Source: an uncultured Planctomycetota bacterium
Lineage (GTDB): Bacteria > Planctomycetota > Planctomycetia > Isosphaerales > Isosphaeraceae
Reading direction: 5' to 3'
Length of the DNA stretch: 64,000 bases
Assembly: GCA_963845755.1 (NCBI GenBank)
Contig: CAWJTV010000011.1
Location: 288,001-352,000, forward strand
Both the position numbers and the translations under genes were made by a program. The notes beneath the pieces are model-generated. The model did not search any database. It had not been told where the DNA came from and saw only the letters and a program-made list of their open reading frames with translations. Numbering within the stretch: the stretch's first letter is position 1; each line of letters begins with the position of its first letter. Below are positions 1 to 48,878 of this stretch, piece by piece.

Positions 1-3000
1 GCGGCCAGGCTGCACCACACCAACATCGTGCCCGTCTTCGGCGTGGGCCGGCAGGACGGCCACCATTATTTCGTGATGCAGTTCATCGCGGGCGTGGGAC
101 TCGACGTGGTCCTGGATGACCTGCGGCGGCTGCGCCAGGCGAAGTCGGAGGCAGGGCCGGCCGCGGGGCTCGTCGCGGCATCGAGCCGCATCGCCGGCCT
201 GTCGGCGGCGGACGTGGCCCGCTCGCTGCTCACCGGCCGGTTCGAGGCCGATGCCGACCTCGTGGATGGGTCCATGACCGAGCCCTTCGACGACGCGGCT
301 CCCGGCCCAACCACCGCAGTCAACGGCCCCCCGACCGACTCCTCCCCGGCGATCCTGCCCGGCTCCTCCGAGCTGTCGGCCTCGTCGGATCCCGACCGGC
401 AGTTCTACCGCTCGATCGCCCGGATCGGCGTCCAGGTGGCCGAGGCGCTGGAGTACGCCAACCGCCAGGGCATCCTCCACCGCGACGTCAAGCCGTCGAA
501 CCTGCTGCTGGACAACCACGGCAACGTGTGGGTGGCCGACTTCGGTCTGGCCAAGACGGCCGAGGCCGACGACCTGACCCATACCGGCGACATCCTGGGC
601 ACCATTCGCTACATGGCACCGGAGCGGTTCTCGGGCCATTGCGATGCGCGGAGGGACGTCTACAGCCTGGGCCTGACGCTGTACGAGCTGGTGGCGTTGC
701 GGCCGGCGTATGAGGCGACCGACCGGCATCGGCTGATGGATCGGGTTCTGCACGAGGAGCCGGAGCGGCTGGAAGAAGCTGGCTCCGAGCGTGCCGCGGG
801 ACCTGGAGACGATCGTCGCCAAGGCGACGGCGCGCGACCCGGCGGCGCGGTACGCGACGGCAGCCGCGCTGGCGGAGGACCTGCGGCGGTTCGTCGAGGA
901 CCGGCCGATCCGGGCGCGGCGGACCTCGCCGGCGGAGCGGCTGGCGCGGTGGTGCCGGCGGAACAAGGGGCTGGCGGCGGCGATCGGCCTGGCGGCGGTG
1001 GCGCTGGTGGCCGCGGTCGTCTTGTCGCTGCCTACGCCGAGCAGCAGCCCGGGACTCGCGGCTGCCCGGAAGCTCGACGCCGCCGAACAAGCCCACGCGC
1101 CGACGACAGGCTGCGGCGGCGGCGAGCACAAGGCCGCCCTGTCCGAGTCGAACCGCCGGCTGGCGATGCTCGACCTGGAGCGAGGCCGGGTCGCCTTCGA
1201 GAAGGGGCAGGTCGGCGTCGGGATGCTCTGGACTTTCGAGTCGCTGCGGATGGCGACCATGGCGGGCGACGAGGCCGGCCGGCATGTGGCCCTGGCCAAC
1301 CTGTCGGCCTGGCGCCGCCACCTCGTCGAGCCGAAGGCTGTTTTCCCCCTGGCGATGTGGTGGGCTCGGTCGCCTTCAGCCCCGACGGCAAGATCTTCGT
1401 GACGGGATGCCGATGGCAACACGGCGCGGCTCTGGGACGTCGCCATCGGCCGGCCCATCGGCAAGCCCTTGCTGCAGCCGGTGCAGTCCGTCGATAGCGT
1501 TCAGTCCCGACGGCCGGATCCTCCTCACGGGATGCGCCGAGGGCCACCTGGCGCAGCTCTGGGACGTCGCCACGGGCAAGCCCATCGGCCCGCCCCTGGT
1601 GCATTCGGGCCCGGTGACCTCGGTGGCGTTCAGCCCGGATGGCAAGACCATCCTCATCGGGGGGACAGCCAGTGACAACCTGTCCGTGGAAGCCACCCTC
1701 CCCGGGGGATCCGAGGACGGCGCGGCTCTGGGACGTCGCCACGGGCAAGCCAATCGACCCGCCCTTGCTGCATCCGGGCCCGGTGATGTCGGTGGCGTTC
1801 AGCCCCAACGGCAAGACGATCCTCACGGGAAGTACTGACACTACGGCGCGGCAGTGGACGCCCATACCGGTCGGCCTATCGGCCAACCTCTGGCGCATTC
1901 GGGCACCGTGACGGCCGTGACTTTCAGTCCGGATGGTCGGACCATCCTCACCGGGAGCTCCGACAAGACGGCACGGCTCTGGGACGCCGCCACCAGCCGG
2001 CCCATCGGCCAGCCTCTGGCCCATTCGGCCAGGTTGTGCTCCGTGGCCTTGAGCCCAGACGGCAAGACCATCCTCACCGGGGGCTTTGATGGCTCGGCCC
2101 AATTGTGGGACGCCGCCACAGGTCGCCGATGGGCAGGCCACTGGACCATCCAGGCATCGTCTGGGCTGTGGCGTTCAGCCCCGACGGCAAGACGATCCTC
2201 ACCGGCAGCACGGACTGGGCAGCGCGACTCTGGGATGGCGGGATCGGTCAGCTCGTCGGCCAGCCGCTGGACTATGGAGCTCGGTGGTGGACGTGGCATT
2301 TAGCCCCGACGGCAAGACCCTCGTCGTCGCGAGCGGTGACGGTAAAGTACGACTCCGTGACGTCGCGTCAGGCCAGCTTCGCGGCCAGACCGTGGAGCAG
2401 GGGTCCCCGATCATTCACGTGGCATTGAGCCCGGATGGCCGCACAATCCTCACATCGGGTTTCGACAAGACGGCGCGGCTCTGGGACGCCGATACCGGCC
2501 GGCCTGTCGGCCAGCCCATGCTGCATCCGGGCGGGGTGCGGGGGGTGGCGTTCAGCCCGGATGGCAAGACCATCCTCACCGGGAGCTCTTACCAGACGGC
2601 GCGGGTCTGGGACGCCCACACCGGGCGGCCGATCAGCCTGCACTTGGAGCAGGCGGAGCCCATGCCCAGCGTGGCGTTCAGCCCGGATGGCAAGACCATC
2701 CTCACCGGGGGGATCGACAGGACGGCGCGGCTCTGGGACGTCGCCACGGGCAAGCCCATCGGCCCGCCCCTGGTGCATTGGGCCCCGGTGGCGTCGGTGG
2801 CGTTGAGCCCTGACGGCCAGACTGTCCTCACCGGTAGCTCGGACAGGACGGCGCGACTCTGGGACGCCCAGACCGGCCGGCCCATCGGCCAACCCCTGGA
2901 ACATCCGGATATGGTGGGGTCGGTGGCGTTCAGCCCCGACGGCAAGACCATCCTCACCGGCTGTGCGGACCTTGCGGCCCGGTTATGGGATACCGTCACC

Positions 3001-4494
3001 GGCCGGCCCATCGGCCGGCCCATGCCGCATGCTTCATCACGACCCAGACGGAATTGCGCGGCATTCAGCCCCGATGGGCGGTTCGTGCTCACGAATGATC
3101 TCAGAACGGTGCGGCTGTGGGATGTCCCGGCGCCGCTGCCCGAGGACCTCCCACGGCTGGCGGCCTGGGTCGAGACTGCCACCGGCCTGCAGCTGGATGA
3201 GCGCGGCTCGATCCACGTGCTCGATCGCGCCGTCTGGCTGGAACGCCGGAGCCGGCTGGAGCAGCTCGGCGGCCCGCCGCCGCCCGATCCGGCCTCGCGG
3301 CTGGACCCGATCCTCTTCGGAGCGGATCCGGCGGCGCGGGGCGACGCCTGGAAGCAGCGGGGCCACTGGGACCGCGCCGAGGAAGCCTACGCCGAGGCGA
3401 TCCGCGCCCGGCCGCTGGAACGATCGGCTTGGGATGCCCTGGCCCGCCTGCACGCCGAGCGCGGCCAGCTCGACCGGGCCGCGGCGACACTCGCCGACGC
3501 CGTCCGGCGGATGCCCGAGGACACGGGCCTCCGCCGTCGATGGGGACTGGCCCTGCTGGAGTCGGGCGATCGGTCCGGCTGGCAGGTGACCGCCGCGCTG
3601 CTGGATCGTTTGGGCAGCACGATCAACCCCCGGACGGCAAGCGATGTGGCCTGGGTCTGCGCCTTGGGGCCCGACGCGACCGGCGATCCCGGCCGGCCTC
3701 TCCGGCTGGCCGAGGCCGCCGTCGAAGGCGCCGAGGAACGCTTCAAGGCCGACGCCTTGAGGACGCTCGGCGCCGCACTGTACCGCGCCGGCCGGTACGA
3801 CGAGGCGATCCGACGGCTCGAGGAAGGCAACCGACTCCCGGGCGGTGAGGGTCTGCCTTCGGCCTGGCCGTTCCTGGCGATGGCCCACCACCGCCTGGGT
3901 CACCGCGATGAGGCACACCGATGGCTCGACCGCCTGCGCGAGCATCAGCCTAGCCTGGATTCCCATGGAGGCAAAAACGGGGTAGGCTACGACGCAATCC
4001 ATAAAACGAAGCAAAATTCGTCGAAGTGGGTTTTCCCCTGGATTTCAAGTGGTTCTGGCTTGAAACGGCTCATCGAAACGCCTCTCTCGATGTTAGGTGA
4101 TCCGTAAACTGAAAAAAGAGCATCCACGGTGTCAACTCAATGCATCCACTGTGGTGAATTCGATAGATTTGTCGCAAGAACCCCTTGTTTTCCAGGAGGA
4201 AGTGAGATTCGATCGACGAACATATCATCCATGGTGATCAAGTTAACATAGTGGGAGACCCACCTTTAACTCTTGGAGGAGCATAACCAGTTCCGAGGCG
4301 AAAAGCTGAGTATCGCGGGCTTTTTTCCAATCATGCGGCAACAAATGTTAGCCCAATCTGCCTCCATGGGAATCCAGGCTAGCAACGACCCGTCGCAATT
4401 CTGGGACGAACTGGAGATCCGTCTGCTGGGCAGCGAGGCTGAGGGCGTAGTCTGTTATGATCCCGCGTTCCCGGACGACCCGTTCGCGCGTTGA
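1..4494 (+). CDS. Membrane Ser/Thr kinase with WD40 repeats and C-terminal TPRs (copy 1); 5'-truncated by the window, frameshifted, interrupted by a MITE at 3954-4378
   Basis: HRDVKPSN, DFG and YMAPE motifs; hydrophobic segment KGLAAAIGLAAVALVAAVV; many VAFSPDGKTILTG...ARLWD repeats; TPR region; C-terminus PAFPDDPFAR* matches copy 3. Confidence 0.9.
3954..4378. mobile_element. Non-autonomous IS-derived element (MITE), 425 bp, 20-bp perfect terminal inverted repeats, CTAG target-site duplication
   Basis: CCTGGATTCCCATGGAGGCA (3954-3973) and TGCCTCCATGGGAATCCAGG (4359-4378); CTAG at 3950-3953 and 4379-4382; AT-rich interior; removal restores EHQPSNDPSQFWDELEIRLL. Confidence 0.92.
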
Positions 4495-4591: not shown

Positions 4592-7500
4592 ATGAACACC
4601 TCCAGCGACGCAGCGCAACCCCGTCGAGCTCCTGGCCGAGGAGTTCCTCGACCGCAAGCGCCGCGGCGAGCAGCCCACGCTCCGCGAGTACCTCGACGCC
4701 ATCCCGACCTGGCCGACGAGATCCGCGACCTGTTCCCGGCGCTCCTCATGATGGAGGACCTCGGCGAGAGCTCCGGCGCCACCACCGGCTCGCTGGCCGC
4801 CGACGGCGCCGCGGTAGGGGTGCGGCTCCAGCGGCTGGGCGATTACCGCATCCTCCGCGAGATCGGCCGGGGCGGCATGGGCGTGGTCTACGAGGCCGAG
4901 CAGGAGTCGCTGGGCCGACGCGTGGCCTTGAAGGTCCTCTCGGCCGGCTCGCTGCTGGACCCGAAGCAAGTCCGGCGGTTCGAGCGCGAGGCCAAGGCCG
5001 CGGCGCGGCTGCACCACACCAACATCGTGCCGGTCTTCGGCGTGGGCCGGCAGGACGGGCACCATTATTTCGTGATGCAGTTCATCGCGGGCGTGGGGCT
5101 CGACGTGGTCCTGGACGACCTGCGGCGGCTCACGGGCGAAGTCCGAGGCGAGTCCGGCCGCGATGCCCGCGCCGGCGGCGAGCCGGATCGCCGGCCTGAC
5201 GGCCGCCGAGGTGGCCCGGTCGCTGATCGCCGGCCGGTTCGACGGCCGATGGGCCGCCGCTGGACGGGTCCGTGACCGAGCCTTCGAGGACGCCGACCCC
5301 GCCCAACCACCGCCGCCAACGGCCCCCCGGCCGACTCCTCCCCGGCGATCCTGCCCGGCTCCTCCGAGCTGTCGGCGTCGTCGGATCCCGACCGCCAGTT
5401 CTACCGCTCGATCGCCCGCATCGGCATCCAGGTCGCCGAGGCCCTAGAGTACGCCAACCGCCAGGGCATCCTCCACCGCGACGTCAAGCCCTCCAACCTC
5501 CTGCTGGACAACCACGGCAACGTCTGGGTGGCCGACTTCGGTCTGGCCAAGACCGCCGAGGCCGACGACCTGACGCATACCGGCGACATCCTGGGCACCA
5601 TCCGCTACATGGCCCCCGAGCGGTTCTCGGGCCATTGCGACGCGCGGTCTGACGTCTACAGCCTGGGCTTGACGCTCTACGAGCTGGTGGCGTTGCGGCC
5701 GGCGTATCGAGGCATCCGACCGCCATACGCTCATGGACCGCGTGCTGCACGAGGAGCCGGAGCGGTTGAAGAGGCTGGCTCCGGGGGTGCCGCGGGACCT
5801 GGAGACGATCATCGCCAAGGCGACGGCGCGGGACCCGGCGGCGCGGTACGCGACGGCGGCGGCACTGGCGGAGGACCTGCGGCGGTTCGTGGAGGACCGT
5901 CCGATCCGGGCGCGGCGGGTGTCGCTGGCGGAGCGGGCGTGGCGGTGGTCGCGGCGGAACAAGGCTCTGGCGGGACTGATGGCGGTCGTGGCCGCTTTGT
6001 TGATCGTCGTAGCCGTTGGCTCGATGCTTTCCGCTCTTCAATTCCGGGGGATGAATCGGAACCTAGAGGGAATGAACCGGACCTTGGAATCGAACCTCTA
6101 CTTCAGCAATGTCGCCCTGTGGCACCCCAGGAGTGCATCGCGGACAACCCGGGGCCTCAGCCGAGCCATTGCTCTACGGCTGCCCGACCCACCTGCGCGG
6201 TTGGGAGTGGCATTACTTGAAGCGCCAGAGTTCTACAGCCCTGCTGACAATCCCCGCGCACGACTCACATACCTTCAGCGTGGCGTACAGTCCGGACGGT
6301 AAGACACTGGCCACCGCGAGCGAGGACGGGACCGTCCGGACCTTCGACGCGGCGAGCGGCCGTCGGCTCCGCACGCTCCTTGCTCACTATCCGAACATCT
6401 GCTGGCGGGCGACTTATACCGCCGATGGGACAATGCTCGTCTCGGCCGGCCGCGACAAGACCGTAAAGATCTGGGATCCAGCGACCGGCGACTTGATTCG
6501 TGTTCTCGGCGGGCACCTGGATACGGTCTGGAGCGGCGAATTCAGTGCCGACGGCAGTCTCCTGACCTCGTCCACTCCCGGGCTCGTTCGAGTGTGGGAT
6601 ACGAAAACGTGGAGCGAGATCCGCAAGCTACCGGGCGGATGGTTCACGAGGTTCAGTCCCGATGGCTCTATGCTCGCATCGTCGGGCCTCGGCCCGGCTC
6701 GAGTTTGGATGACATCCAGCTTGCGCGACGAAGTGGACCCCCATCCGCGGACCTTCGGTGCAAAGGAGGACAACTCGCGGGTCGCCTTCAGCCCGGATAG
6801 TCGATCGATCGCCTTCGGTGCCAGGGACAACTCCGTGATGATCGTGGACCTGAAGAGCGGCCTGCCTGCCTTCAAGCCTCTGGTCGGACACACGAACTAC
6901 GTCTGGGAGCTGTGTTACAGCCACGACGGTTCCTATCTCGCATCGACCAGCGCCACCGGACCGTGAAGGTCTGGGATGCGAAGACGGGTCGCTTGCTCCA
7001 TACGTATCTGGGACATACGAATCGCACCACCGGTCTGTCTTTCGCCCCCGACTCGCGCCGGCTAGCCTCAGCCAGCGTGGACGGAACCGTGAAGATCTGG
7101 GACCTGGCCGATCTGCGAGAACCGGCGGTCCAGGCTGCGCGCACTCTCCCCCGCCACCCCGGCTCCGCACTCAGCGTGACGCATCGCCCATCCGGCCGAT
7201 TCTTCGCCACCGCCCACGGGTTCGATATCAATCACACCGCCACAGTGGGTCGGCGACAAGAACCGCCCCGGATTGAGTCGGTGACAATCTGGGATGCGAA
7301 GTCCAACAATGAGGTCCACACCCTCACCGTCCCTGATCCCGCGGCGGGTGCCTGCCACGATGTCGCCTTCGACAAGGACTTCGGGCGTATCGCGTGGGCC
7401 AGGGGCAACGGGACGATTGAGATCCGGGACGCGGCGACCGGCCGGCTGATCCACGTCCTGACGGGCCACAATGAGTGTGCCTGGCGGGTGGCCTTCAGCC

Positions 7501-8093
7501 CCGATGGGCGGTTGCTAGCCTCGGCGGGCCGCGACGCGACCGTGCGGGTCTGGGACACGGCGACCGGGCGACCCTTGTATACTCTGCCCGGAGTTAGCGA
7601 CCTGATCGTGGGTCTTGGGTTCAGTCCCGACGGCCGGCGGCTCGCCCTGGCGGGAGCGGACTTCGATCTGCTCAAACCCTCTCAATTGCGGGTCTGGGAT
7701 GTGGCGACCGGCCGGCCGCTCGGCGTACTCGGCGAGTCCTTCGACTACGCCACCATGGCGTTCCACTCCGGCGAGCCACGGCTCGCCCGATCGGTCGGCG
7801 CGGAAATCTTCGTTCTGGACGTGATGACCGGCGGAGAGTTACTCCGCCTTCGTGGGCATACCGAAGCCATCACAAGCATGGCCTACAGCCCCGACGGCCG
7901 CCGTCTCGCCTCAGTCGCGCATGACGGGACCGTCAAGCTCTGGGACTCGGCGACTGGCCGGGAAATCCTCACATTGCTCCACGGCCGCAGCGAATTGATG
8001 ACGGGCGTGAGCTTCAGCCCCGACGGCCGGCAGATCGTCACGACCAGCGAGAGCGGGACCATCAAGGTCTGGGATGCGACACCGTTACCGTGA
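4592..8093 (+). CDS. Membrane Ser/Thr kinase with WD40 repeats (copy 2; frameshifted)
   Basis: GGAG RBS before ATG 4592; YRILREIGRGGMGVVYEAEQ, VALK, HRDVKPSN, DFG, APE; TM segment; LRGWEWHYL linker; GH...WD repeats ending IKVWDATPLP*. Confidence 0.9.
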
Positions 8094-8168: not shown

Positions 8169-11100
8169 ATGGCTACCTCCAGCGATGAGCGCAACCCCGT
8201 CGAGCTGTTAGCCGAGGAGTTCCTCGACCGCAAGCGCCGCGGCGAGCAGCCGACGTTGCGCGAATACCTCGGCCGCCATCCCGACCTGGCCGATGAGATC
8301 CGCGACCTGTTCCCGGCCCTGCTCATGATGGAGGACCTGGGTGAGAGTTCCGGCGATACCTCGGGGTCGTTGGCCGCCGATCACGGCGCGGCGGTGGGTT
8401 TCCGCCTGCGGCGGGTGGGCGACTACCGAATCTTGCGCGAGATTGGCCGAGGGGGCATGGGCGTCGTTTATGAGGCGGAGCAGGAGTCGCTGGGCCGCCG
8501 CGTCGCCTTGAAGGTCCTCTCGGCCGGCTCGCTGCCCGACCCCAAGCATCTGCGGCGGTTCGAGCGCGAGGCCAGGGCCGCGGCGCGGCTGCACCACACC
8601 AACATCGTCCCGGTCTTCGGCGTCGGCCAGCAGGACGGCAACCATTACCTCGTGATGCAGTTCATCGCGGGCATGGGGCTCGACCTGGTTCTCGAGGACC
8701 TGCGTCAGCTCCGGCGGGCGAAGGCCGACGCGGGCCAGGCCTCGGGGTCCGCGCCGCCGGTGTACGACCCGGCCGGGCCGACGGCCGACGTGATCGCTCG
8801 CTCGCTGATGACCGGCCGGTTCGCCGCGGCCAGCACGGTCACCGTGCGCCTCGGAGAGTCGCCCCCGGACGTCTCTCTGCTGCTCCCCAGAGACGGGCCC
8901 GGGGCCGACGCCGGCTCCCGTCCGGCGCCCTGACCGGCGCCTCCGACCTTTCGGCCCTGGCTGACTCTGACCGGCGGTACTATCAGAGCGTGGCCCGGAT
9001 CGGCGTGCAGGTCGCCGAGGCCCTCGAGTATGCCAACCGCCAGGGCGTCCTCCATCGCGACGTCAAGCCGTCGAATCTCCTGCTGGATAGCCGCGGCAAC
9101 GTCTGGGTCGCCGACTTCGGGCTGGCCAAGACGGCTGAGGCCGATGACCTGACTCACACAGGCGACATCCTGGGCACCATCCGCTATATGGCCCCCGAGC
9201 GGTTCTCGGGCCATTGCGACGCGCGGTCGGATGTATACAGCCTGGGCCTGACACTCTATGAGCTGGTGGCACTGCGGCCGGCGTTCCAGGCGACCGACCG
9301 GCACGCGCTGATCGACCGGGTGCGGCACGGCGAGCCGGATCGGCTCAAGAAGGTGGTGCCGGGCGTGCCGCGGGACCTGGAGACGATCATCGCCAAGGCG
9401 ATCGCCCGCGACCCGTCGGCACGGTATGCGACCGCCGGCGCGCTCGCGGAGGACTTGCAGCGGTTCGTGGAGGACCGGCCGATCCGGGCGCGGCGGGTGT
9501 CGGCGTCCGAGCGGCTGGTCCGATGGTGTCGGCGCAACCCCTGGATCGCCGGGTCAATCGGCGTGGCGGCGTCCGCGACGGTCGGCTTGTTCGTGCTGGC
9601 GCTGGTGTACGCCGCGGATCGAGATCGTTTCGCCAAGCAACAGACCATTCGCGTCGCCGAGCAGACGAAGGCGACCAACGAGATCACGCGGTTAGCCGGC
9701 GCCCTCGAGCGGCGCGGCAAGGCCCTCGAGTCGTCCCTGGCCGAGTCGACCCGCCGACTGGCGATGCTCGACTTCGAGCACGGGCGAATCGCCTGCGAGC
9801 AGGGGCAGATCGGACCTGGGTTGGTCTGGATGATCGAGAGCCTGCGCACCGCCACCGACGCGGGCGATCCGGCCTGGAGGCATGCCGCCCTGGCCAGCCT
9901 CTCCGATTGGCGGCGATACCACACCGACCTGAAGGGCATCTTCACTCATCAGGGCGCCGTCGCCGCCGTCGCGATGAGCCCTGACGGCGCGATGGTCCTC
10001 ACCGGGAGCTACGACAAGACGGCGCAGCTCTGGAATGCCGCGACCGGCCAACCCATCGGAAGGCCGCTCTCGCACGAGAGGCGGATCGTGGCCGTGGCCT
10101 TCAGCCCGGACGGCAAGACCGTCGCCACCGGGAGCTACGACAAGACGGCGCGGCTCTGGGACGCCAGCACCGGCCAGCCCATCGGAGAGCCGCTCCCGCA
10201 TCACGCCGAGGTCCTGGCCCTGGCCTTCAGCCCCGATGGCAAGGCCATCCTCAGCGGCTGCTGGGATCAGACGGCGCGGCTCTGGGACGTCGACACCGGC
10301 CAACCCACCGGAAAGCCGCTCTCACATCAGAGCGGGGTCGCCGCCGTGGCGTTCAGCCCCGACGGCAAATCCATCGTCACCGGCTGTCAAGACCGGACGG
10401 CGCGGCTCTGGGACGCCGGCACCGGTCAGCCTGTCGCCAAGCCCATGGAGCATCCTGACGCGGTCGTGGCCGTGGCCTTCAGCCCCGATGGCAAGACGAT
10501 CCTCACCGGCTGCCGTGACGGCAAGGCGCGGCTCTGGGACGCCGACACCGGACGACTGTTCGGCCAACCCATGGAGCATTCGGGCTGGGTCCTCAGCGTG
10601 GCGTTCAGCCCGGATGGCAAGACCGCCGTCACCGGGAGCTCGGACCGGACGGCGCGGCTCTGGGACGCCGACACGGGACGACCCATCGGCCATCCCCTGC
10701 CGCAATCGGGCGAGGTCGTGGTCGTGGAGTTCAGCCCGGATGGCAAGACCGTCATCACCGTGGATCAGGTGGGGATGACACGGTTGTGGGACCCCGCCAC
10801 GGGCCGCCCCGTCGGATCGTCCTCCGCGGGTTCGGAGGAGGCCGCTACCGTGACGCTCAGTCCCGACCATAGGACCCTCCTCATCGTCAGCGAGGACGGA
10901 ACGTTACGGCGCTGGGACGCCGCTACGGGCCGACCCGTCGGATCGCCCCTACCTTACCACGGTGTGGTCATGGATGTGGCGTTAAGCTTCGACGGCAAAC
11001 GGATACTCACCGGAGGCTATGACAAGACGGCGCGGCTGTGGGACGCTGCTACTGGCCGACCCCTCGGCCCGCAACTCCGGCATTCTGCCGCGGTCGAATC

Positions 11101-12227
11101 GGTGGCCTTCAGCCCCGATGACAAGACGATCCTCACCGGCAGCCAGGATGGTACGGCGCGGTTGTGGGACGCCGCGACCGGCCAGCCGATCGCCAGGCCC
11201 CTGGAGCATCGCGACATGGTCGTTAGCGTGGCGTTCAGCCCCGACGGCCAGACCATCCTCACCTCTGACAAGAGCATCCTCGCCAGCAACCCGAGAGGGA
11301 CGGTACGACTGTGGGAAACCCCGAAGCCAGTCCCCGACGATCTCCCGCGCCTCACCGCCTGGGTGACCACTTCCACCGGCCTGGAGTTGGATGAGCAAGG
11401 GGCGATCCGGGTCCTCGACGGTGACACCTGGTGGCGGCGCCGCGTCCAACTTCGTGAACTGGGCGGCCCGCCCGCAGCCGGTCCCGCGCAGTCGCTCGAC
11501 CCGATCCTCCTCGGTCTCGACCCGACGGCCCGGGCCCGCGCCTGGAATCCAGCGCAACCGCTGGGCGGAGGCCGAAGCCGCCCTCGACGAGGCCGTTGCC
11601 GCGCGACCACTGAACCGCGACGTTCGGACCGAGCGCGGTCGGTTCTACCTGGCCCGTGCACAGCCGGAAAAGGCCGCCTCCAACTTCGCCGAGGCTGTCT
11701 TGCTCGATCCGGCCGACCTCGCCGCCCGACATGACCTGATCCTGGCGCTGTTGGCCGCCGGCGATCGCGACGGAGTGCGGCGGGCAGCCGCCGACCTGCT
11801 CGACCGGTTCGGCACGACGGCCGATCCAGACGAGGCCAACAAGGTTGCCTGGTCCTACGTCCTGGCGCCCGACCCGGTCGCCGACTGTGAGGCCCTGGTG
11901 CGACTGGCCGAGAACACCTTGAAGACTCACGGTGCGGCCTTGTACCGGGCCGGTCGGTACGACGAGGCGATCCGACGGCTCGAGGAAGGCTTTCCGCTTC
12001 GGAACGGCACGAACGTGCCACAGGGCTGGGCGTTCCTCGCCATGGCTCATTGCCGGCTCGGTCACCAGACCGAGGCCCACCGCTGGCTCGACCGGCTGAA
12101 ACAGCATCAGCCCAGCACGGACCCGGCTCAATTCTGGAACGAGCTGGAGGTCCGCCTGCTGCGGAGCGAGGCCGAGGCTGTGGTCCTTCATGATCCCGCG
12201 TTCCCGAGCGATCCGTTCGCATCATGA
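8169..12227 (+). CDS. Membrane Ser/Thr kinase with WD40 repeats and TPRs (copy 3; frameshifted near 8930 and 11550)
   Basis: MATSSDERNPVELLAEEF start; full kinase motifs; TM WIAGSIGVAASATVGLFVLALVY; about 10-11 WD40 repeats; TPR tail ending PAFPSDPFAS*. Confidence 0.92.
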
Positions 12228-12288
12228 GCGGAAGGAATGAGTCCGATGGGGCATTCGATCCCATCCGGCCGAGGACCACGGCTCGGGG

Positions 12289-20021: not shown

Positions 20022-21641
20022 ATGCGTCCACCAATTCGTGCATTGACTGCACTCCTCGCGGCAGGATTCGTCTTCCTGATCGCCCCATCGCAAAGTTGGG
20101 CAGGCGAATCCAAGGATCAATCCCGGACCAAGGATCGTCCTTCTCAAACTCAGGACACTCCGGATATTCCCACGGTCAACCTCCTGGACGCCCTGCGCAC
20201 CAAGCAGGTCTCGGCCCAGGTTGAAGGGACCGGCGATGGCCGGGTGACCGTCTCGTTGACCAACAAGACCCCGCGCAAACTCCGCGTAGTGCTGCCACCC
20301 GGCATCATCGCCCAGAGTGCCACCGGCCAGATGGGTGGCATGATGGGTGGTATGGGCGGTGGCATGGGCGGCGGCGGAATGGGCGGTGGTATGGGCGGCG
20401 GCGGAATGGGCGGTGGTATGGGCGGCGGCATGGGCGGTGGCATGGGCGGTGGCGGTGGCATGGGCGGTGGCGGAAGTACAATGCCGCCGATGATGGGCAT
20501 GATGATGCTCTCGAACATCATCATGTACTTCTGCGGGGATTTCGATAGCTGGGACCGCCGATCCCTGATGATGGGCATGGGCGGCGGCGGCATGATGGGT
20601 GGTATGGGCGGCATGGGCGGCGGTGGCATGGGCGGCGGCGGCATGATGGGCGGTGGCATGGGCGGTGGCATGGGTGGCATGATGTCGGTTCCGCCGTCGG
20701 GCCTGCCGTTCGCTGATCTCAACTCCAAGCAGACCCGGCACTTGCCGACGCAGTTCGTGAGTCTCTCGCCGCCGGACCCCCAGTCGGGTGCGAGCCTGCC
20801 GGCGAAGGGTGAAGGGCTGAGGATCCTCGGCGACATCAGCCGGGCGAGCGACGATCCTCGGGTGCAGAAAGCGCTCCGACGGCTGGCGGCCGAGACGGCT
20901 CCGGCGACGATCACGCAACTGGTGATGTGGCGATTGGCCGCGGGGCTGGACTGGGAGACGATTTCCCGGTTGTCGGATCGCTGGGCGAACCGCTCGGAGC
21001 TGACCCTGGCCCAGGACTTCGTCGAGCGTCTGGATGCGGTGACGGTCGGCGAGAGCGGTCGGCTCTTGTTCCAGGTGCAGGGTAGCGATGCGGCGGGCGA
21101 GTTGCTGGCGGCCGAGGTGGGCAAGGCGGTGAGCGGCAAGATGGTGCTGGGCCTGATGGCCGAGATGGGAATACCCGCTCAGCCCCAGGGGCCGGCCGTG
21201 GCTTGCCAGGTCCGGATCACGGGGACCGAAGCCCTGGTCCAGGTCACCGGAAGCGACGAGACGGGCCTGCAGCTGGATCCCGTTCGGCAAGTTCACGCTC
21301 CCCATCACCCGGGAGCGGGAGAAGTTTGATGCCTCGCGGTTCGCCGATGCGATGGCCCAAGGGATCTTGAACCGGATGGTCCGGATGCAGTTGACCAAGG
21401 GCCCGCGCGCAAGGGAAGGCTGACCTACCAGATCCGGATCGACAACGCGTCGCCGTGGATCCTCAATGGACTGTCGGCCCTGGGGACGACGAGCAAGGAC
21501 AGTGAGGCTGCCAGGCTGATGTCGGGCCTCAGCATCCCGCCGCGCAAGAACATGACGGTCCCGGCCAGTGAGGACGTGGTTAAGCTGCTGGGTCTGAAGA
21601 AGGGGATCCGGGTCATGGCGGTCAACCTGAGCGGGCTCTGA
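20022..21641 (+). CDS. Exported hypothetical protein with two (GGM)n low-complexity tracts (frameshifted near 21270 and 21420)
   Basis: Signal-peptide-like MRPPIRALTALLAAGFVFLIAPSQSWA; Gly/Met tracts at about 20330-20475 and 20570-20685. Confidence 0.75.
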
Positions 21642-22589: not shown

Positions 22590-25500
22590 GTGACCTCGAT
22601 GTTATTCCCTCGCCCACGCCGTCCCTCCGTCAGGGGACGCCGGCCGATCGCGGCCCGCCGATTTCACCTTGAGGGACTGGAAGATCGGACCCTGTTGACG
22701 CTGAGTGCCATCAATCTTGGCGTCACGGTGAAGTCAACGCCGGTGGTGATGAACGGCGAGCTGTTCTTCGCCGGCTACGACGCCACCCACGGCGTCCAGC
22801 TCTGGGAGTCCAATGGGACCGCCCAGGGCACCGTCCAGCTCACCAACTCGAACGACGTTAACAACGGCATCAACCCCCAGGACCTCACCGTCGTCGGCAA
22901 TACCCTCTTCTTCGCTGCCGACGACCTCACCCACGGCGGACCAGCTCTGGAAGAGCGACGGCACCGTGGCCGGCACAACCTACGTCACCGACAGCAACGA
23001 CGGCGTCGCCAACTTCGGCATCTACCCCTCGTACCTCACCAACGCGAACGGCACCCTCTACTTCACCGGCCTGGACCTCAACGACGACACCCAGGTTTTC
23101 CAGAGCAACGGGACCGCCGCCGGCACCACGATGGTGGCCGACATCCCTGGGGCCAACAACGAGCCCGGCTGCTATCCCAGCGACTTTACCGTTGCCGGCG
23201 GCATCCTCTACTTCCAGGCCGCCAACGCGACTGCCGGCGCCAGTTGTGGGAAACCAACGGGACGGCCAGCGGGACGACGATGCTCACCAGCGGCAACGCC
23301 AGCGGGGGCGGCACGGTCCCGCAGGATCTGACGGCGGTCGGCAATACCTTGTACTTCAACGGCTTTGACGCGACCAACGGATTCCAGGTGTGGCAGAGCG
23401 ACGGGACAGCCAGTGGGACCGTGCGGCTGACCAGCGGCGGAGCCACCGGATTGGGCCTGAATCCCAGCGACCTCACGGCGGTGGGGAGCACCCTGTACTT
23501 CGCGGCCAATGACGGGACCCACGGCGACCAGTTGTGGTCATTCAGCGGTGGCTCGGCGACGATGCTCAGCAGCGGCAATGCCAGTGGCGGGGGCCTGAGC
23601 CCCACGAACCTGACCGCCGTGGGCAACACGCTGTTCTTCGTGGGTGATGACGGCGCGCACGGTAACCAGTTGTGGTCGAGCAACGGGACGGCCGGCGGCA
23701 CGGCAATGGTGGCCGACATCAACGGCACGTCCACCGCCGACGTGACCAACCTGATCAACATGAATGGGATACTGTACTTCTCTGCCTACACGACGAAGAA
23801 CGGGTTCCAGGTGTGGCAGAGCGACGGGACGTCCGCCGGCACGGTGATGGATACTGACCTCAACACCGGCGTGAGCAACGGCCCAACCAACTTCACCATC
23901 ATGGGCAACGCCCTCTACTTCACCGCCCCAGGCGCACCGATGTGGATGTGGGTGCCAACGTCGACGCAAACGACGCCGACGATCACCTGGGCCGACCCCG
24001 CGAATATCGTCTACGGCACCGCCTTGAGTGGGACCCAGCTCGACGCCACCGCCAGCGTCCCGGGAACCTTCACTTATACCCCGGCCGCCGGTACCATCCT
24101 GAATGCGGGCAACAACCAGACGCTCTCGGTCACATTCACGCCCACGGACACCACCGATTACACGGATGCTACCGCTACGGTCGCGATCAGCGTATCGCAA
24201 GCCACACCCACGCTCACCTGGGCCAACCCCGCGAATATTGTCTATGGCACGGCGCTGAGTAGCACGCAGCTCGATGCGACCTCAAGTGTGCCGGGAACTT
24301 TCACCTATACTCCGGCCGCAGGCACGGTCTTACGTGCGGGCAACGGCCAGACGCTCTCGGTCATGTTCAAGCCCACGGACACCACCGATTACACGGATGC
24401 CACGGCCACAGCCACGATCAACGTGGCACAGGTCACGCCGACCATCACCTGGAACAATCCGGCGGGCATCGTCTACGGCACGGCCCTGAGCGGGACCCAG
24501 CTCGACGCCACCGCCAGCGTGCCGGGGACCTTCACCTATACGCCACCCGCCGGCACGGTCCTGAGCGCGGGCAACGGCCGGACGCTCTCGGTCACCTTCA
24601 CGCCCACCGATACGACCGATTACGCGGATGCCACGGGGACGGCCACGATCAACGTGGCGCAAGCCACGCCCACGCTTACCTGGACCAACCCCGCGGACAT
24701 CGTCTATGGCACCGCCTTGAGCGGGACCCAGCTCGATGCCACGGCCAGCGTGCCGGGGACCTTCACCTATTCGCCGGCCAGCGGCACGATCCTCCCGGCG
24801 GGCGCCGACCAGACGCTCTCGGTCTCCTTCACACCCACCGATGCCACCGATTACACCGATGCCACGGGAACAGCCACGATCAACGTCGCGCAAGCCACAC
24901 CGACGCTCACCTGGGCCAACCCGGCGAATATCGTCTACGGCACCGCGCTAAGCAGCAGGCAGCTCGATGCGACCTCAAGCGTGCCGGGGACGTTCGCGTA
25001 TTCCCCGGCCGCGGGTACGATCCTGAGCGCGGGGAACGGCCGGACGCTCTCGGTCACCTTCACGCCCGCCGATACCAACGATTACACCCATGCCACGGAC
25101 ACAGCCACGATCAACGTGGCGCAGGCCACTCCCGTGATCACCTGGGCCAACCCGGCGAGCATCGCCTATGGCACGGCGCTGAGCAGTACTCAGCTCGATG
25201 CGGGGGTGAATGTCCCCGGGACTTTTGCCTATACTCCGGCCGCGGGAACGGTCCTTCCGGCGGGCAACGGCCAGACTCTGTCGGTCACCTTCACGCCCAC
25301 CGACACGACCGATTACACCACCGCCACGGCCACTGCAAACCTCAATGTCCTACCAACGACACAAACCACGCCCACGATCACTTGGGCCGACCCCGCGGAC
25401 ATCGTCTATGGGACCGCCTTGAGCGGGACCCAGTTCGACGCCACCGCCAGCGTGCCGGGGACCTTCACCTATTCGCCACCCGCCGGCACGATCCTGAGCG

Positions 25501-28235
25501 CGGGCGCCGACCAGACGCTCTTCGTCACCTTCATGCCCACCGACACGACCGATTACACCACCGCCAGGGCCACGGCGAGCCTCAACGTGGCGAAGGCCAC
25601 ACCGACGCTCACCTGGGCCAACCCGGCGAGCATCGTCTATGGCACGGCGCTGTCCGGGACCCAGCTCGATGCCACTGCCGGGGTGCCGGGTACCTTTGCC
25701 TACACCCCAGCCGAGGGCACTCTCCTGAGACCGGGCAATGGCCAGACGCTCTCGGTCACCTTCACGCCCGCCGATACCAATGATTACACCACCGCCACGG
25801 CCACGGCGAGGATCAACGTGGCGCAAGCCACCCCGACGATCGCCTGGGCCAACCCGCCGAGCCTTGTCTTTGGCACCGCGCTGTCCGGGACCCAGCTCGA
25901 CGCCACGGCCAGCGTACCGGGGACCTTCACCTACACGCCGGCCGCCGGCACGGTCCTTTCGGCGGGCAACGGCCGGACCCTCTCGGTCACCTTCACGCCC
26001 ACAGATACCACCGATTACGCGGACGCCACGGGCACAGCCACGATCAACGTGGCGCAAGCCAAGCCCACGCTCACCTGGGCCAACCCCGCAAATATCGCCT
26101 ACGGGACAGCCCTGAGCGGGGCCCAGCTCGATGCCACCGCCAGCGTGCCGGGGACCTTCACCTATTCGCCACCCGCCGGCACGGTCCTGAGCGCGGGCGA
26201 CGACCAGTCACTTTCGGTCTCCTTCACGCCCACCGACGCGACCGACTACACCAGCGCCAGGGCCACGGCGAGCCTCAACGTGGCGCAAGCCACGCCGTCG
26301 ATCATCTGGGCCAACCCCGCAAATATCACCTACGGCACGGCGCTCAGCAGCAAGCAGCTCGATGCGACCTCAGGCGTGCCGGGGACTTTCATTTACGCCC
26401 CGGCGGCGGGAACGGTCCTTCCGGCGGGCGACGGCCAGACCCTCTCGGTCACCTTCACGCCCACCAATACCACGGATTACACCACCGCCACGGCCACGGC
26501 AAGCCTCAATGTCCTACCAACGACACAAACCACGCCCACGATCACCTGGGCCGGCCCCGCGGACATCGTCTATGGCACCGCATTGAGCGGGACCCAGCTC
26601 GACGCCACCGCCAGCGTGCCGGGGACTTTCACCTACACACCGGCCGCCGGCACGGTCCTACCGGCAGGCGACGACCAGACGCTCACGGTTTTCTTCACAC
26701 CCACCGATACCAAGGACTACACCACCGCCAGGGCCACGGCGAGCCTCAACGTGGGGCAAGCCGCGCCCATGCTCACCTGGGCCAACCCGGCGAGTATCGT
26801 CTACGGCACGGCACTGAGCAGCCGGCAGCTCGATGCGACCTCGAGCGTGCCGGGGACGTTCGCTTACTCCCCGGCCGCCGGTACGATCCTGAGCGCGGGC
26901 AACGGCCGGACCCTCTCGGTCACCTTCACGCCCACCGACACGACCGATTACACGGATGCCACGGCCACGGCCACGATCAACCTGTCGCAGGCCACGCCCA
27001 CGCTCACCTGGGCCCACCCCGCGAGCATCGTCTATGGCACGGCGCTGTCCGGGACCCAGCTCGATGCGACCTCAAGCGTGCCGGGGACCTTTGCCTATAC
27101 CCCGGCCGCGGGTACGATCCTGAACGCGGGCAACGGACGGACGCTGTCGGTCACCTTCACGCCCACCGATACCAACGATTACACCACCGCCGGGGCCGAG
27201 GCGAGCCTCAACGTGGCGCAAGCCACGCCGACGATCACCTGGACCAACCCGGCGAGCATCGTCTACGGGACCGCCTTGAGCGGGACGCAGCTCGATGCCA
27301 CTGCCAGCGTGCCGGGAAGCTTCGCGTACACCCCGGCCGCCGGTACGGTCTTGCATGCGGGACGCGACCAGACGCTCTCGGTTTCCTTCACGCCCACGGA
27401 TACCATCGATTACACCATTGCCGATGCGACAAGTACAATCAATGTGGCACAAGCCACGCCCACGATCACCTGGGCCAATCCCGCGGACATCGTCAATGGC
27501 ACGGCGCTGTCCGGGACCCAGCTTGATGCCGCCGCCAGCGTGCCCGGAACCTTCGCGTACACGCCGGCTGTCGGCGCCGTCCTGAATGCAGGCAACGACC
27601 AGACGCTCTCGGTCACGTTCACACCCAAGGATACCACCGACTACACCACCACCCGAGCGACTGCGGCGATCAACGTTCTCTCAATACCCACACCGACTCC
27701 CACGCCGACGCCAACTCCTCCCCCATTGGTCACAGTCAGTTCGGTTTCGCCGGCCTTCGGGAAGCACCACGAGGTCAGCACGGTGCTCGTCCAGTTCAGC
27801 GGGCCCGTCAACGTGGCTCTGGCGAACTCGGTCGCGGAATACCGGCTCGCGATCGCCGGCAAGCACGGCTCGTACGATGCCAGGAACGCGCGGGTCATCG
27901 CACTGAAGTCAGCCGCCTATAACAGCGCGACGAACACAGTGACACTGACACCTGTGAAGATGTTCAACCTGAGCAAGCCCGTGGAAGTGCGGGTCGAGGG
28001 CGAGCCACCCTCGGGAATGCTCGACTCATTCGGCCGGTTGATCAGCGTCGTCCCGAATGCCGCTGGTGGTGGCGATACCAACGCAATCTTGAAGAAAGGT
28101 GGGGTGACGATCCTGGCGCGGGAAGCGGTTGTCCGGCCAGATTCGGCTCACGCAGCCGTCCGGCTGCTCCATCGTAGCCGACCGGGGCATGCCGCCATCT
28201 CCGGCCCGCGGAGTCGCCACCGTGCGCGGTCTTGA
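22590..28235 (+). CDS. Large surface/adhesin-like protein: planctomycete LEDRxLL leader, ELWxxDGT-type propeller repeats, 16 tandem ~77-aa Ig-like repeats, PT linker
   Basis: RRFHLEGLEDRTLL; QLWESNGT/QLWKSDGT/QVWQSDGT repeats with compensating frameshifts near 22940 and 23240; repeat TPTxTWANPAxIVYGTALSGTQLDATASVPGTFTYTPAAG. Confidence 0.9.
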   Translation: MTSMLFPRPRRPSVRGRRPIAARRFHLEGLEDRTLLTLSAINLGVTVKSTPVVMNGELFFAGYDATHGVQLWESNGTAQGTVQLTNSNDVNNGINPQDLTVVGNTLFFAADDLTHGGPALEERRHRGRHNLRHRQQRRRRQLRHLPLVPHQRERHPLLHRPGPQRRHPGFPEQRDRRRHHDGGRHPWGQQRARLLSQRLYRCRRHPLLPGRQRDCRRQLWETNGTASGTTMLTSGNASGGGTVPQDLTAVGNTLYFNGFDATNGFQVWQSDGTASGTVRLTSGGATGLGLNPSDLTAVGSTLYFAANDGTHGDQLWSFSGGSATMLSSGNASGGGLSPTNLTAVGNTLFFVGDDGAHGNQLWSSNGTAGGTAMVADINGTSTADVTNLINMNGILYFSAYTTKNGFQVWQSDGTSAGTVMDTDLNTGVSNGPTNFTIMGNALYFTAPGAPMWMWVPTSTQTTPTITWADPANIVYGTALSGTQLDATASVPGTFTYTPAAGTILNAGNNQTLSVTFTPTDTTDYTDATATVAISVSQATPTLTWANPANIVYGTALSSTQLDATSSVPGTFTYTPAAGTVLRAGNGQTLSVMFKPTDTTDYTDATATATINVAQVTPTITWNNPAGIVYGTALSGTQLDATASVPGTFTYTPPAGTVLSAGNGRTLSVTFTPTDTTDYADATGTATINVAQATPTLTWTNPADIVYGTALSGTQLDATASVPGTFTYSPASGTILPAGADQTLSVSFTPTDATDYTDATGTATINVAQATPTLTWANPANIVYGTALSSRQLDATSSVPGTFAYSPAAGTILSAGNGRTLSVTFTPADTNDYTHATDTATINVAQATPVITWANPASIAYGTALSSTQLDAGVNVPGTFAYTPAAGTVLPAGNGQTLSVTFTPTDTTDYTTATATANLNVLPTTQTTPTITWADPADIVYGTALSGTQFDATASVPGTFTYSPPAGTILSAGADQTLFVTFMPTDTTDYTTARATASLNVAKATPTLTWANPASIVYGTALSGTQLDATAGVPGTFAYTPAEGTLLRPGNGQTLSVTFTPADTNDYTTATATARINVAQATPTIAWANPPSLVFGTALSGTQLDATASVPGTFTYTPAAGTVLSAGNGRTLSVTFTPTDTTDYADATGTATINVAQAKPTLTWANPANIAYGTALSGAQLDATASVPGTFTYSPPAGTVLSAGDDQSLSVSFTPTDATDYTSARATASLNVAQATPSIIWANPANITYGTALSSKQLDATSGVPGTFIYAPAAGTVLPAGDGQTLSVTFTPTNTTDYTTATATASLNVLPTTQTTPTITWAGPADIVYGTALSGTQLDATASVPGTFTYTPAAGTVLPAGDDQTLTVFFTPTDTKDYTTARATASLNVGQAAPMLTWANPASIVYGTALSSRQLDATSSVPGTFAYSPAAGTILSAGNGRTLSVTFTPTDTTDYTDATATATINLSQATPTLTWAHPASIVYGTALSGTQLDATSSVPGTFAYTPAAGTILNAGNGRTLSVTFTPTDTNDYTTAGAEASLNVAQATPTITWTNPASIVYGTALSGTQLDATASVPGSFAYTPAAGTVLHAGRDQTLSVSFTPTDTIDYTIADATSTINVAQATPTITWANPADIVNGTALSGTQLDAAASVPGTFAYTPAVGAVLNAGNDQTLSVTFTPKDTTDYTTTRATAAINVLSIPTPTPTPTPTPPPLVTVSSVSPAFGKHHEVSTVLVQFSGPVNVALANSVAEYRLAIAGKHGSYDARNARVIALKSAAYNSATNTVTLTPVKMFNLSKPVEVRVEGEPPSGMLDSFGRLISVVPNAAGGGDTNAILKKGGVTILAREAVVRPDSAHAAVRLLHRSRPGHAAISGPRSRHRARS
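23972..27680 (+). repeat. 16 tandem ~231-bp coding repeats
   Basis: Counted 16 units in the translation, each starting with (T/K/A)PxxxW. Confidence 0.9.
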
Positions 28236-48718: not shown

Positions 48719-48878
48719 AATTCGAGATTCCTGATTCGAGATTCCTGATTCGAGACTCCTGATTCCTGATTCGAGATTCCTGATTCGAGACTCCTGATTC
48801 CTGATTCGAGATTCCTGATTCCTGATTCTGTAAAGTAAAATTATATATTTTTGAATCTGGAATCTCGAATCTGAAATC
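48719..48878. repeat. Heptamer tandem array (16 units GATTCGA/GATTCCT/GACTCCT), AT-rich spacer, then about 4 inverted units
   Basis: Read directly: array 48719-48830; inverted GAATCT-type units 48852-48878. Confidence 0.9.

Follow-up and report, generated by a model that had tools for sequence, protein, structure and literature searches.

Uniform WD40 scaffolds and dN/dS above 1 at three predicted top-face codons in young members of a planctomycete receptor-kinase family

A 64,000-nt stretch of an Isosphaeraceae genome (the window, whose coordinates we use throughout; it lies in contig C11 of the source genome, G000, which comprises 14.3 Mb in 49 contigs and is 88% complete) opens on a gene whose WD40 repeats share a scaffold and differ at a few positions. 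The question that this locus raises is what such a pattern records: recognition of a changing ligand, or some other history of the repeats. An earlier note on this DNA had taken the first view, calling the repeats HET-E-like and proposing a module for non-self or ligand recognition that diversifies by repeat shuffling. The repeats flagged there form the WD40 array of K1, a planctomycete gene for a Ser/Thr kinase with a transmembrane (TM) helix, WD40 repeats and a tetratricopeptide repeat (TPR) region, and the second of four tandem kinase genes behind a gene for an extracytoplasmic function (ECF) sigma factor. The reading that we favour, with modest confidence, is that the array, with its 14 WD40 blades, is the sensor of a membrane receptor kinase that binds a variable outside ligand and signals to the ECF, that young members of the family are shaped by gene conversion together with selection, and that K1 itself is an older member, likely decaying.

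The K1 array (1348..3125, plus strand) aligns as 14 blades of 126 nt, predicted to form two 7-bladed propellers. Numbering the His of each blade as position 1, we find the DHSW tetrad (His, Ser/Thr, Asp, Trp) and the (V)-R1-R2-(V) bulge, here as V5-x6-x7-V8, with hotspots at positions 4, 6 and 22. Amino-acid entropy across the blades of K0, K1 and K3, in columns that hold 29–38 blades, peaks at the same positions (3.45, 3.45 and 3.51 bits; next 2.76), which bears out the two variable windows, after the His and after the TG, that had been described from the letters; all the motifs quoted for them are found in blades (8/8 after the His, 7/7 after the TG, 6/6 in what was called copy 3). These positions match the R1-2, R1 and D-1 hotspots of the WD40 top face (PMC3419727). 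A single-sequence model of the intact array of a relative, G074 (pLDDT 67.7, pTM 0.47), places position 4 before strand a, position 6 in the start of strand a and position 22 in the b-c turn, and its best fold match is the 14-blade structure 2YMU of the repetitive propeller WRAP (E 2.6e-41; PMC9218822). Established WD40 geometry and the modelled strand positions together support the top-face placement that the earlier note had assumed.

At these three hot codons, the young arrays of the family show dN/dS above 1. Our estimates come from custom MG94-type codon code run on 42-codon alignments with indel segments masked, on trees that recombination distorts and among relatives that are not independent. 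The hot codons gave dN/dS of 8.1 in K0, the 14-blade array just upstream of the window (G000:C11:282570-287050; twice the log-likelihood difference, 2dL, 18.5), 7.7 in the C33 array (2dL 20.7) and 11.1 in L080, an intact array from a short-read metagenome (2dL 58.1). Other relatives gave 5.0 (G048b), 2.6 (G074) and 1.9 (G065), and five young arrays pooled gave 3.5 (2dL 59.3); 2dL ran from 5.0 to 59.3 over the young arrays and the pool, and scaffold dN/dS from 0.13 to 0.44. A comparison of M8 with M8a on 63 blades (2dL 35.8) pointed to sites 4, 6 and 22, and a scan of all 42 codons selected the same sites in 3 of 3 sets; fixed-effects-likelihood-type per-site fits were unstable on 33 blades. 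The fourth site known from HET-E, position 24 here, showed no selection. Between blades of K0 (63 pairs), 4-fold sites are 88% identical and hot residues 3%. Soil contigs that are 93–99% like K1 place 8 of 32 listed substitutions (p 0.0015) and 6 of 28 codons (p 0.013) at hot codons, with cross-mapping of paralogues possible. When hot sites were simulated as neutral under conversion, 2dL exceeded 18 in 0 of 40 runs and 3.84 in 3 of 40. The C33 array (G000:C33:329887-331280) and K0 are more uniform than K1 and carry the clearest selection signal.

Several results weigh against a selected sensor of this kind. K1 alone gives 1.5 at the hot codons (2dL 2.0), K3 1.4 and the old array C11b 1.5 (2dL at most 2.0), none of them significant; homogenisation with diversifying selection, as claimed for the flagged repeats, finds support in the family and in K0 but not in K1 or K3 taken alone. 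M8 against M8a on K0, K1 and K3 reaches a 2dL of 4.0 with omega 1.29, indels affect the assemblies behind most young arrays, and no defence genes were seen beside family loci among 55 neighbouring open reading frames (ORFs) scanned. A neutral-but-hypermutable codon model ties with selection in G048b, G074, C33 and K1. Four positional orthologue pairs give dN/dS of 0.44–0.63 at the hot codons, purifying in 4/4. In a simulation of blade-specific hot residues, frozen and spared by conversion, 18 of 20 runs exceeded a 2dL of 18, and the third-base identity of hot codons falls within the range of that model in 5 of 7 young arrays and above it in the other 2.

The last simulation embodies an alternative in which purifying selection fixes the binding residues of each blade and conversion homogenises only the scaffold, mimicking positive selection while the ligand stays constant for each gene. 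It also returns an omega of about 5 and 9% hot-residue identity, and it fits the older paralogues: 13 of 14 C11b blades match the same-numbered blade of the G001 orthologue, with 25 of 40 hot residues kept, and the G075b/G064 pair keeps 22 of 31. The K0-type young genes behave differently: their kinase sides are 89–93% identical in protein, yet their hot residues are not conserved by position. Hot residues at the same position are shared at 1 of 23 sites between K0 and K1 (kinase sides 93% identical), 2 of 13 between K0 and its orthologue G012, 5 of 12 between G012 and G048a, and 6 of 20 between G048a and G074, and this low conservation argues against frozen residues in the young genes. All 12 site-6 codons of L080 likewise carry the same third base across 7 residues, and silent sites beside codon 22 match distant ones in uniformity, in a test to which simulation assigns little power. 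We regard frozen residues as an unlikely explanation overall, if one to be kept in mind. The low dN/dS of the orthologue pairs beside the high values of the young arrays points to a family with fast and frozen members, and the paralogues do fall into these two regimes.

It could also be that a local mutational process, similar to a diversity-generating retroelement (DGR) or of another kind, randomises the hot codons and that selection is secondary. The ties with the hypermutable model agree with this, as does a skew in codon use: hot codons ending in T before G number 54 of 67 in young arrays (13.6 expected) versus 20 of 71 in old arrays (14.0 expected), in arrays that are related to each other and were partly retrieved by one pattern. 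An in-frame TAG stands at codon 22 in three blades and never at Trp29 (one-step paths to stop: 609 for Trp29 versus 164). However, the skew needs few independent origins if a founder codon ended in T, and TAG can be the consensus of mixed variants; it was not seen in the in-frame metagenome arrays. For the skew and the TAG codons, the plain candidates are founder codons and consensus chimeras. Selection fits better than hypermutation in L080 (by 9.7 log-likelihood units), in K0 and in the pooled set, where hot codons show no elevated silent rate (multiplier 0.05–1.0). We found no template repeat (isolated blade-like matches reach at most 49 bits), 0 of 42 RVT_1 matches lie in the locus, and scaffold adenines are invariant. 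A mutational origin therefore seems improbable to us. A DGR in particular we rejected, as neither a template repeat nor an adjacent reverse transcriptase was found and the variation is not limited to adenines, in a genome at 88% completeness and with its reverse transcriptases unclassified.

The favoured reading also holds that conversion keeps the scaffold uniform. Concerted evolution of the repeats is seen in K0 and its relatives, and in K1 as short tracts only. K0-type genes contain two classes of blade: position-specific (7, 8 and 14, with parts of 6 and 9) and generic (1–5 and 10–13). The generic blades have no positional identity: between genes, their silent identity is 0.84 at the same position versus 0.83 at other positions for K0 and G012, and 0.79 versus 0.77 for K0 and K1. 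At 4-fold sites, blades of the first and second K0 propellers are 0.88 identical, and K0 and G012 are 0.84 identical in same-position blades and 0.74 on the kinase side. Blades 7 and 8 of K1, at the junction of its two propellers (2147..2397, plus strand), each find their best match in the same-numbered K0 blade, and both types recur in K0-type relatives. Since uniform blades lie on both sides of these older junction blades, conversion is indicated rather than one amplification.

This arrangement counts directly against the idea that a single blade was recently amplified and that unconstrained surface positions then drifted neutrally and decayed, with no special selection, because it is not obtainable from one amplification. 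Such amplification and decay are known for highly repetitive propellers, many of them disrupted (PMC9218822), and K1, with its frameshifts, transposon insertion and omega near 1, would suit the idea. A star-like neutral simulation at matched silent identity, however, kept 71% of hot residues (minimum 55% in 22 runs), against 3–14% observed. Amplification with drift is already contradicted for the K0-type young arrays and may hold for K1 alone; for the pattern at large we judge it decidedly improbable.

Uniformity differs between arrays. The K1 repeats had been called nearly identical in DNA, which overstates their likeness: K1 blades average 71% nucleotide identity (maximum 89%) and 59% in amino acids. 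Array means are 68% in K3, 78% in K0, 88% in C33, 85% in G012 and 53–62% in older arrays, and the within-gene identity above 80% typical of the fungal HNWD genes is reached by the C33 and G012 arrays and not by K1, K3 or K0. C33 blades carry 7–11 gene-specific substitutions relative to K0-type genes. K1 blades resemble those of K0 (0.77) more than they resemble each other (0.71). The 50-nt repeat that the earlier note had reported is real: the tract at 1556..1605 (end of blade 2 and start of blade 3) is identical to that at 2730..2779 (blades 11–12), both on the plus strand, and the identity extends no further; judged from the sequence, it is likely a conversion tract. K1 has five exact tracts of at least 30 nt, and the longest in-register one after masking, 46 nt, exceeds 300 of 300 codon permutations (maximum 39). 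GC-biased conversion was considered as support for homogenisation and dropped, the 4-fold GC of the kinase region being about equal to that of the blades (0.95 versus 0.98 in K0).

Uniform arrays invite suspicion of the assemblies, in which repeats may have been collapsed or polished toward each other while errors gathered in the variable windows. The most uniform arrays are indeed the most frameshifted (8/13 intervals in K0, 10/13 in G012 and 5/10 in C33), and masked indel segments concentrate in window 1. Intact arrays with the same pattern, in G074 (0/13 shifts), G065 and the metagenome contigs L063 and L080, already contradict an artefact, which may account for frameshifts and TAG codons and is otherwise extremely improbable.

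Repeat shuffling fared less well than conversion. Fourteen blades are present in 8 of 11 K0-type genes, and the other three have 12–13, with missed anchors. K3 has 11 blades and its G001 orthologue 14; the K3 blade 5 matches blade 5 in front and blade 8 behind, and this chimera indicates a 3-blade deletion, a change from 14 to 11 between species. Pairs of variants at residues 4 and 6 are shared between genes 10 times against 8.0 expected (p 0.26), which is not above chance, so reshuffling of whole blade variants was not detected. Soil contig pieces that bridge blades 3-4-5 and 7-8-9 keep the blade order. The shuffling claim thus has weak support, from one deletion in K3, with blade number largely fixed. 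A metagenome contig, L064, carries a K0-type gene with four blades in one frame, either a real deletion or an assembly collapse.

K1 itself is in poor state and has no intact reading frame. Five of its 13 inter-blade intervals are frame-shifted, and a further frame change lies near 771 according to a frame map against an intact relative; of the 251 kinase C-lobe loci genome-wide, 25 have a frame change. At 768-772 (where they lack the extra base), 1855 and 2275, the frame is unbroken in related soil contigs, which marks the breaks there as errors or recent lesions. No sequencing run among those searched contains the window (best share 0.16), and none of RNA that contains it was listed. A miniature inverted-repeat transposable element (MITE) of 425 bp (3954..4378, no strand assigned), with terminal inverted repeats and a CTAG target duplication, sits in the last codons of K1 and cuts off the last ~36 conserved residues. 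Its arms are a perfect 24 nt, including CTAG, and the genome has 20 copies, most of them identical. The frameshifts may be assembly errors; the MITE insertion is not. Because of the frameshifts, the MITE and a low aromatic share among hot residues (10% of 30 codons in K1 versus 25% of 244 in young arrays), K1, an older family member, is likely drifting or decaying. The MITE family looks active, and three 2.13-kb elements share its ends (C20:745793-747918, C28:431156-433283 and C9:307153-309279); the one that we checked encodes a 548-aa putative DDE-like transposase (weak DDE_Tnp_1 match, E 1e-4).

What kind of receptor would carry these propellers is indicated by the rest of the gene. K1 starts about 405 nt before the window; its Hanks-type Ser/Thr kinase domain spans 1..900 (Pkinase E 4e-28), followed by a predicted single TM helix at the junction of kinase and repeats (968..1024; Kyte-Doolittle 19-residue mean 2.6), the WD40 array, a C-terminal helical/TPR region (3126..3953; TPR_2, TPR_14 and TPR_19) and, beyond the MITE, a detached conserved C-terminal tail (4379..4494; 78% identical to the final 36 residues of an intact relative), all on the plus strand. 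Blade 3 contains a loop insertion of ~42 nt (1660..1715, limits approximate, plus strand; interval 169 nt), which is bridged by related contigs from two runs (1627-1741 and 1627-1785). The intact relative P0001 has 1475 aa, and a kinase, one TM segment (equivalent hydrophobic mean 2.4), 14 WD40 repeats and TPRs account for its full length. K1 has the plan of a planctomycete receptor kinase, with Hanks kinase, single TM helix and C-terminal WD40/TPR arrays, and the order of kinase before one TM helix suggests that the propellers are periplasmic. The blade count, frame shifts, blade-3 insertion, position-specific blades 7, 8 and 14, kinase gene and 3' MITE all go beyond the earlier note. Pfam searches of the window ORFs, and NCBIfam and PADLOC searches of the intact relative, revealed kinase, WD40 and TPR only, with no NACHT/STAND NTPase or HET domain; the HET-E likeness in selection concerns young arrays, at three of four equivalent sites, with no significant signal in K1 and K3, and there is none in domain architecture or, at 71%, in the repeat identity of K1. 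PADLOC matches to PD-T4-6 and MADS6 were set aside, as they cover the generic kinase domain only.

The gene for the ECF sigma factor (TIGR02984 at 179 bits, just under the cut-off of 183.75) comes first in the locus, then the 14-blade K0, which lies upstream of the window, a gene for a STAS protein, K1, K2 and K3. At 6 loci in 5 genomes a family kinase is directly preceded by an ECF gene, 86–92% identical to the first of the set, so an ECF gene adjoins a membrane kinase repeatedly, and the ECF is conserved while the hot residues of the kinases turn over. In the mechanism that we propose, a ligand would dock on the variable faces of the double propeller in the periplasm through three top-face residues per blade, and the ligand-bound kinase would dimerise and autophosphorylate. 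It would then phosphorylate the conserved ECF near its DSSD motif, which we take to stand in place of DAED, and the ECF would switch on a response. In young members, gene conversion would keep the scaffold uniform while selection changes the hot residues. Phosphorylation of an ECF by its kinase has been demonstrated for EcfP/PknT and EcfK/PknS (PMC8999054, PMC13147305), kinase activation has been proposed for planctomycete ECF groups (PMC7826278), and we suggest the same step here because of these parallels. From the selection pattern we infer a fast-changing biotic ligand, perhaps a protein of a competitor, predator or phage, and the K1 family may serve in bacterial non-self recognition, one of the roles that the earlier note proposed. 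It is tempting to speculate further on an immune-like receptor-kinase repertoire of large-genome soil planctomycetes, in which conversion keeps a blank scaffold, a non-DGR local process rewrites three contact codons per blade (hence the skew to G/T-ending codons and the stray TAG), one conserved sigma factor serves each new non-self specificity, and receptors of stable ligands freeze while others decay; we consider this fuller picture a long shot.

Beyond K1, the window holds K2 (4592..8093, plus strand), a tandem kinase whose WD40 region is diverged and non-repetitive, and K3 (8169..12230, plus strand), a kinase-TM-11xWD40-TPR gene whose blade 5 looks chimeric. The STAS (anti-anti-sigma-like) gene (G000:C11:287040-287573) recurs in or near kinase clusters at equivalent places of G048 and G012. 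The source genome has 251 well-covered kinase loci, a lineage-specific expansion, together with ~50 near full-length TIGR02984-like ECF genes and 42 unclassified reverse transcriptase matches. Its marker families (TIGR02984, DUF1559 and DUF1501) point to a planctomycete. A scan of genome contigs with the K1 C-terminal region returned one unrelated locus. Of 121 genomes of the family, 14 carry a match to the blade DNA pattern, against 0 of 400 others sampled from the phylum; in metagenome contigs, a long DNA pattern gave 0 matches and a shorter one 27 loci, 7 of them of the K1/K0 blade type. In metagenome contigs L066, L067, L073, L083 and L087 (56–61% GC), long ORFs contain a related repeat with a period of 135 nt, which belongs to another repetitive WD40 family. 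Elsewhere in the window are a 1881-aa ORF (22590-28235) with 16 copies of a 231-bp immunoglobulin-like repeat, probably an adhesin, two blocks of Gly-Met-rich low-complexity repeats (20334-20681) and an intergenic short tandem repeat of 7/14/35 bp (48726-48828).

Diverse hotspots in repetitive bacterial WD40s (PMC5587647), propeller decay (PMC9218822) and kinase-WD40 fusions are already in print. Codon-level tests of selection and conversion on propellers of bacterial receptor kinases did not turn up in the literature searched, which comprised few subscription papers and no supplements (those of Hu et al. may hold examples). Our results extend the HET-E mode, a uniform scaffold with selected contact codons, from fungal NOD-like receptors (NLRs) to bacterial membrane kinases, and they show fast and frozen family members together within a single genome. 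A simple read-out is available in the conserved ECF, which makes sensing by planctomycete receptor kinases testable, and the young arrays are natural randomised binder scaffolds. K1 is not the best example, and K0 and the C33 array are better targets for follow-up.

Among known systems, planctomycete kinase-WD40-TPR proteins are described in print (PMC11032199, PMC8567305), and the family shares with them a cytoplasmic kinase, one TM helix, periplasmic WD40/TPR arrays and lineage-specific expansion; blade-level evolution is absent from the parts of that literature consulted (PMC11032199). The highly repetitive prokaryotic WD40s of Hu et al. 2017 (PMC5587647) are alike in high internal identity, diverse hotspots and kinase fusions in Planctomycetes. 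Where the sections of those WD40 papers that we consulted ascribe uniformity to recent amplification and give no site-wise dN/dS, our data point to conversion around fixed junction blades and to dN/dS above 1. The kinase-activated ECFs (ECF43 EcfP/PknT and EcfK/PknS; ECF59-62 and ECF217 proposed) likewise sit beside a membrane Ser/Thr kinase with no adjacent anti-sigma gene (PMC7826278, PMC8999054, PMC13147305), and PknS, whose periplasmic sensor is of the TPR type, responds to predation by amoebae (PMC8999054, PMC13147305). Unlike EcfP and EcfK, the ECF here keeps acidic residues (DSSD) at the motif, and one ECF heads a series of several kinases and a STAS protein. The DGR-diversified antigen sensors of multicellular bacteria also place hypervariable ligand-binding domains on signalling proteins, with variation mainly at codon positions 1 and 2 (PMC10907252); the present family differs in having no template repeat or neighbouring reverse transcriptase, a WD40 rather than a C-type lectin fold, and variation beyond adenines.

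The closest parallel is with the HET-D/HET-E (HNWD) NLRs of Podospora, which have 126-nt WD40 units, a double propeller and a homogenised scaffold (PMC1805685, PMC12222747), and whose selected codons lie in the d-a loop and b-c turn, their 7, 9 and 25 corresponding to 4, 6 and 22 here by a mapping that we infer from the published description, unaligned. Their site 27 (24 here) is not selected in K-family blades, identity is lower (71% in K1 versus more than 80%), repeat number is mostly fixed, and the junction blades are position-specific. K1 is, moreover, a membrane kinase with a TPR tail and an ECF partner, lacking HET and NACHT. The K1 family works like the HET-D/E sensor domain, but it is not an NLR.

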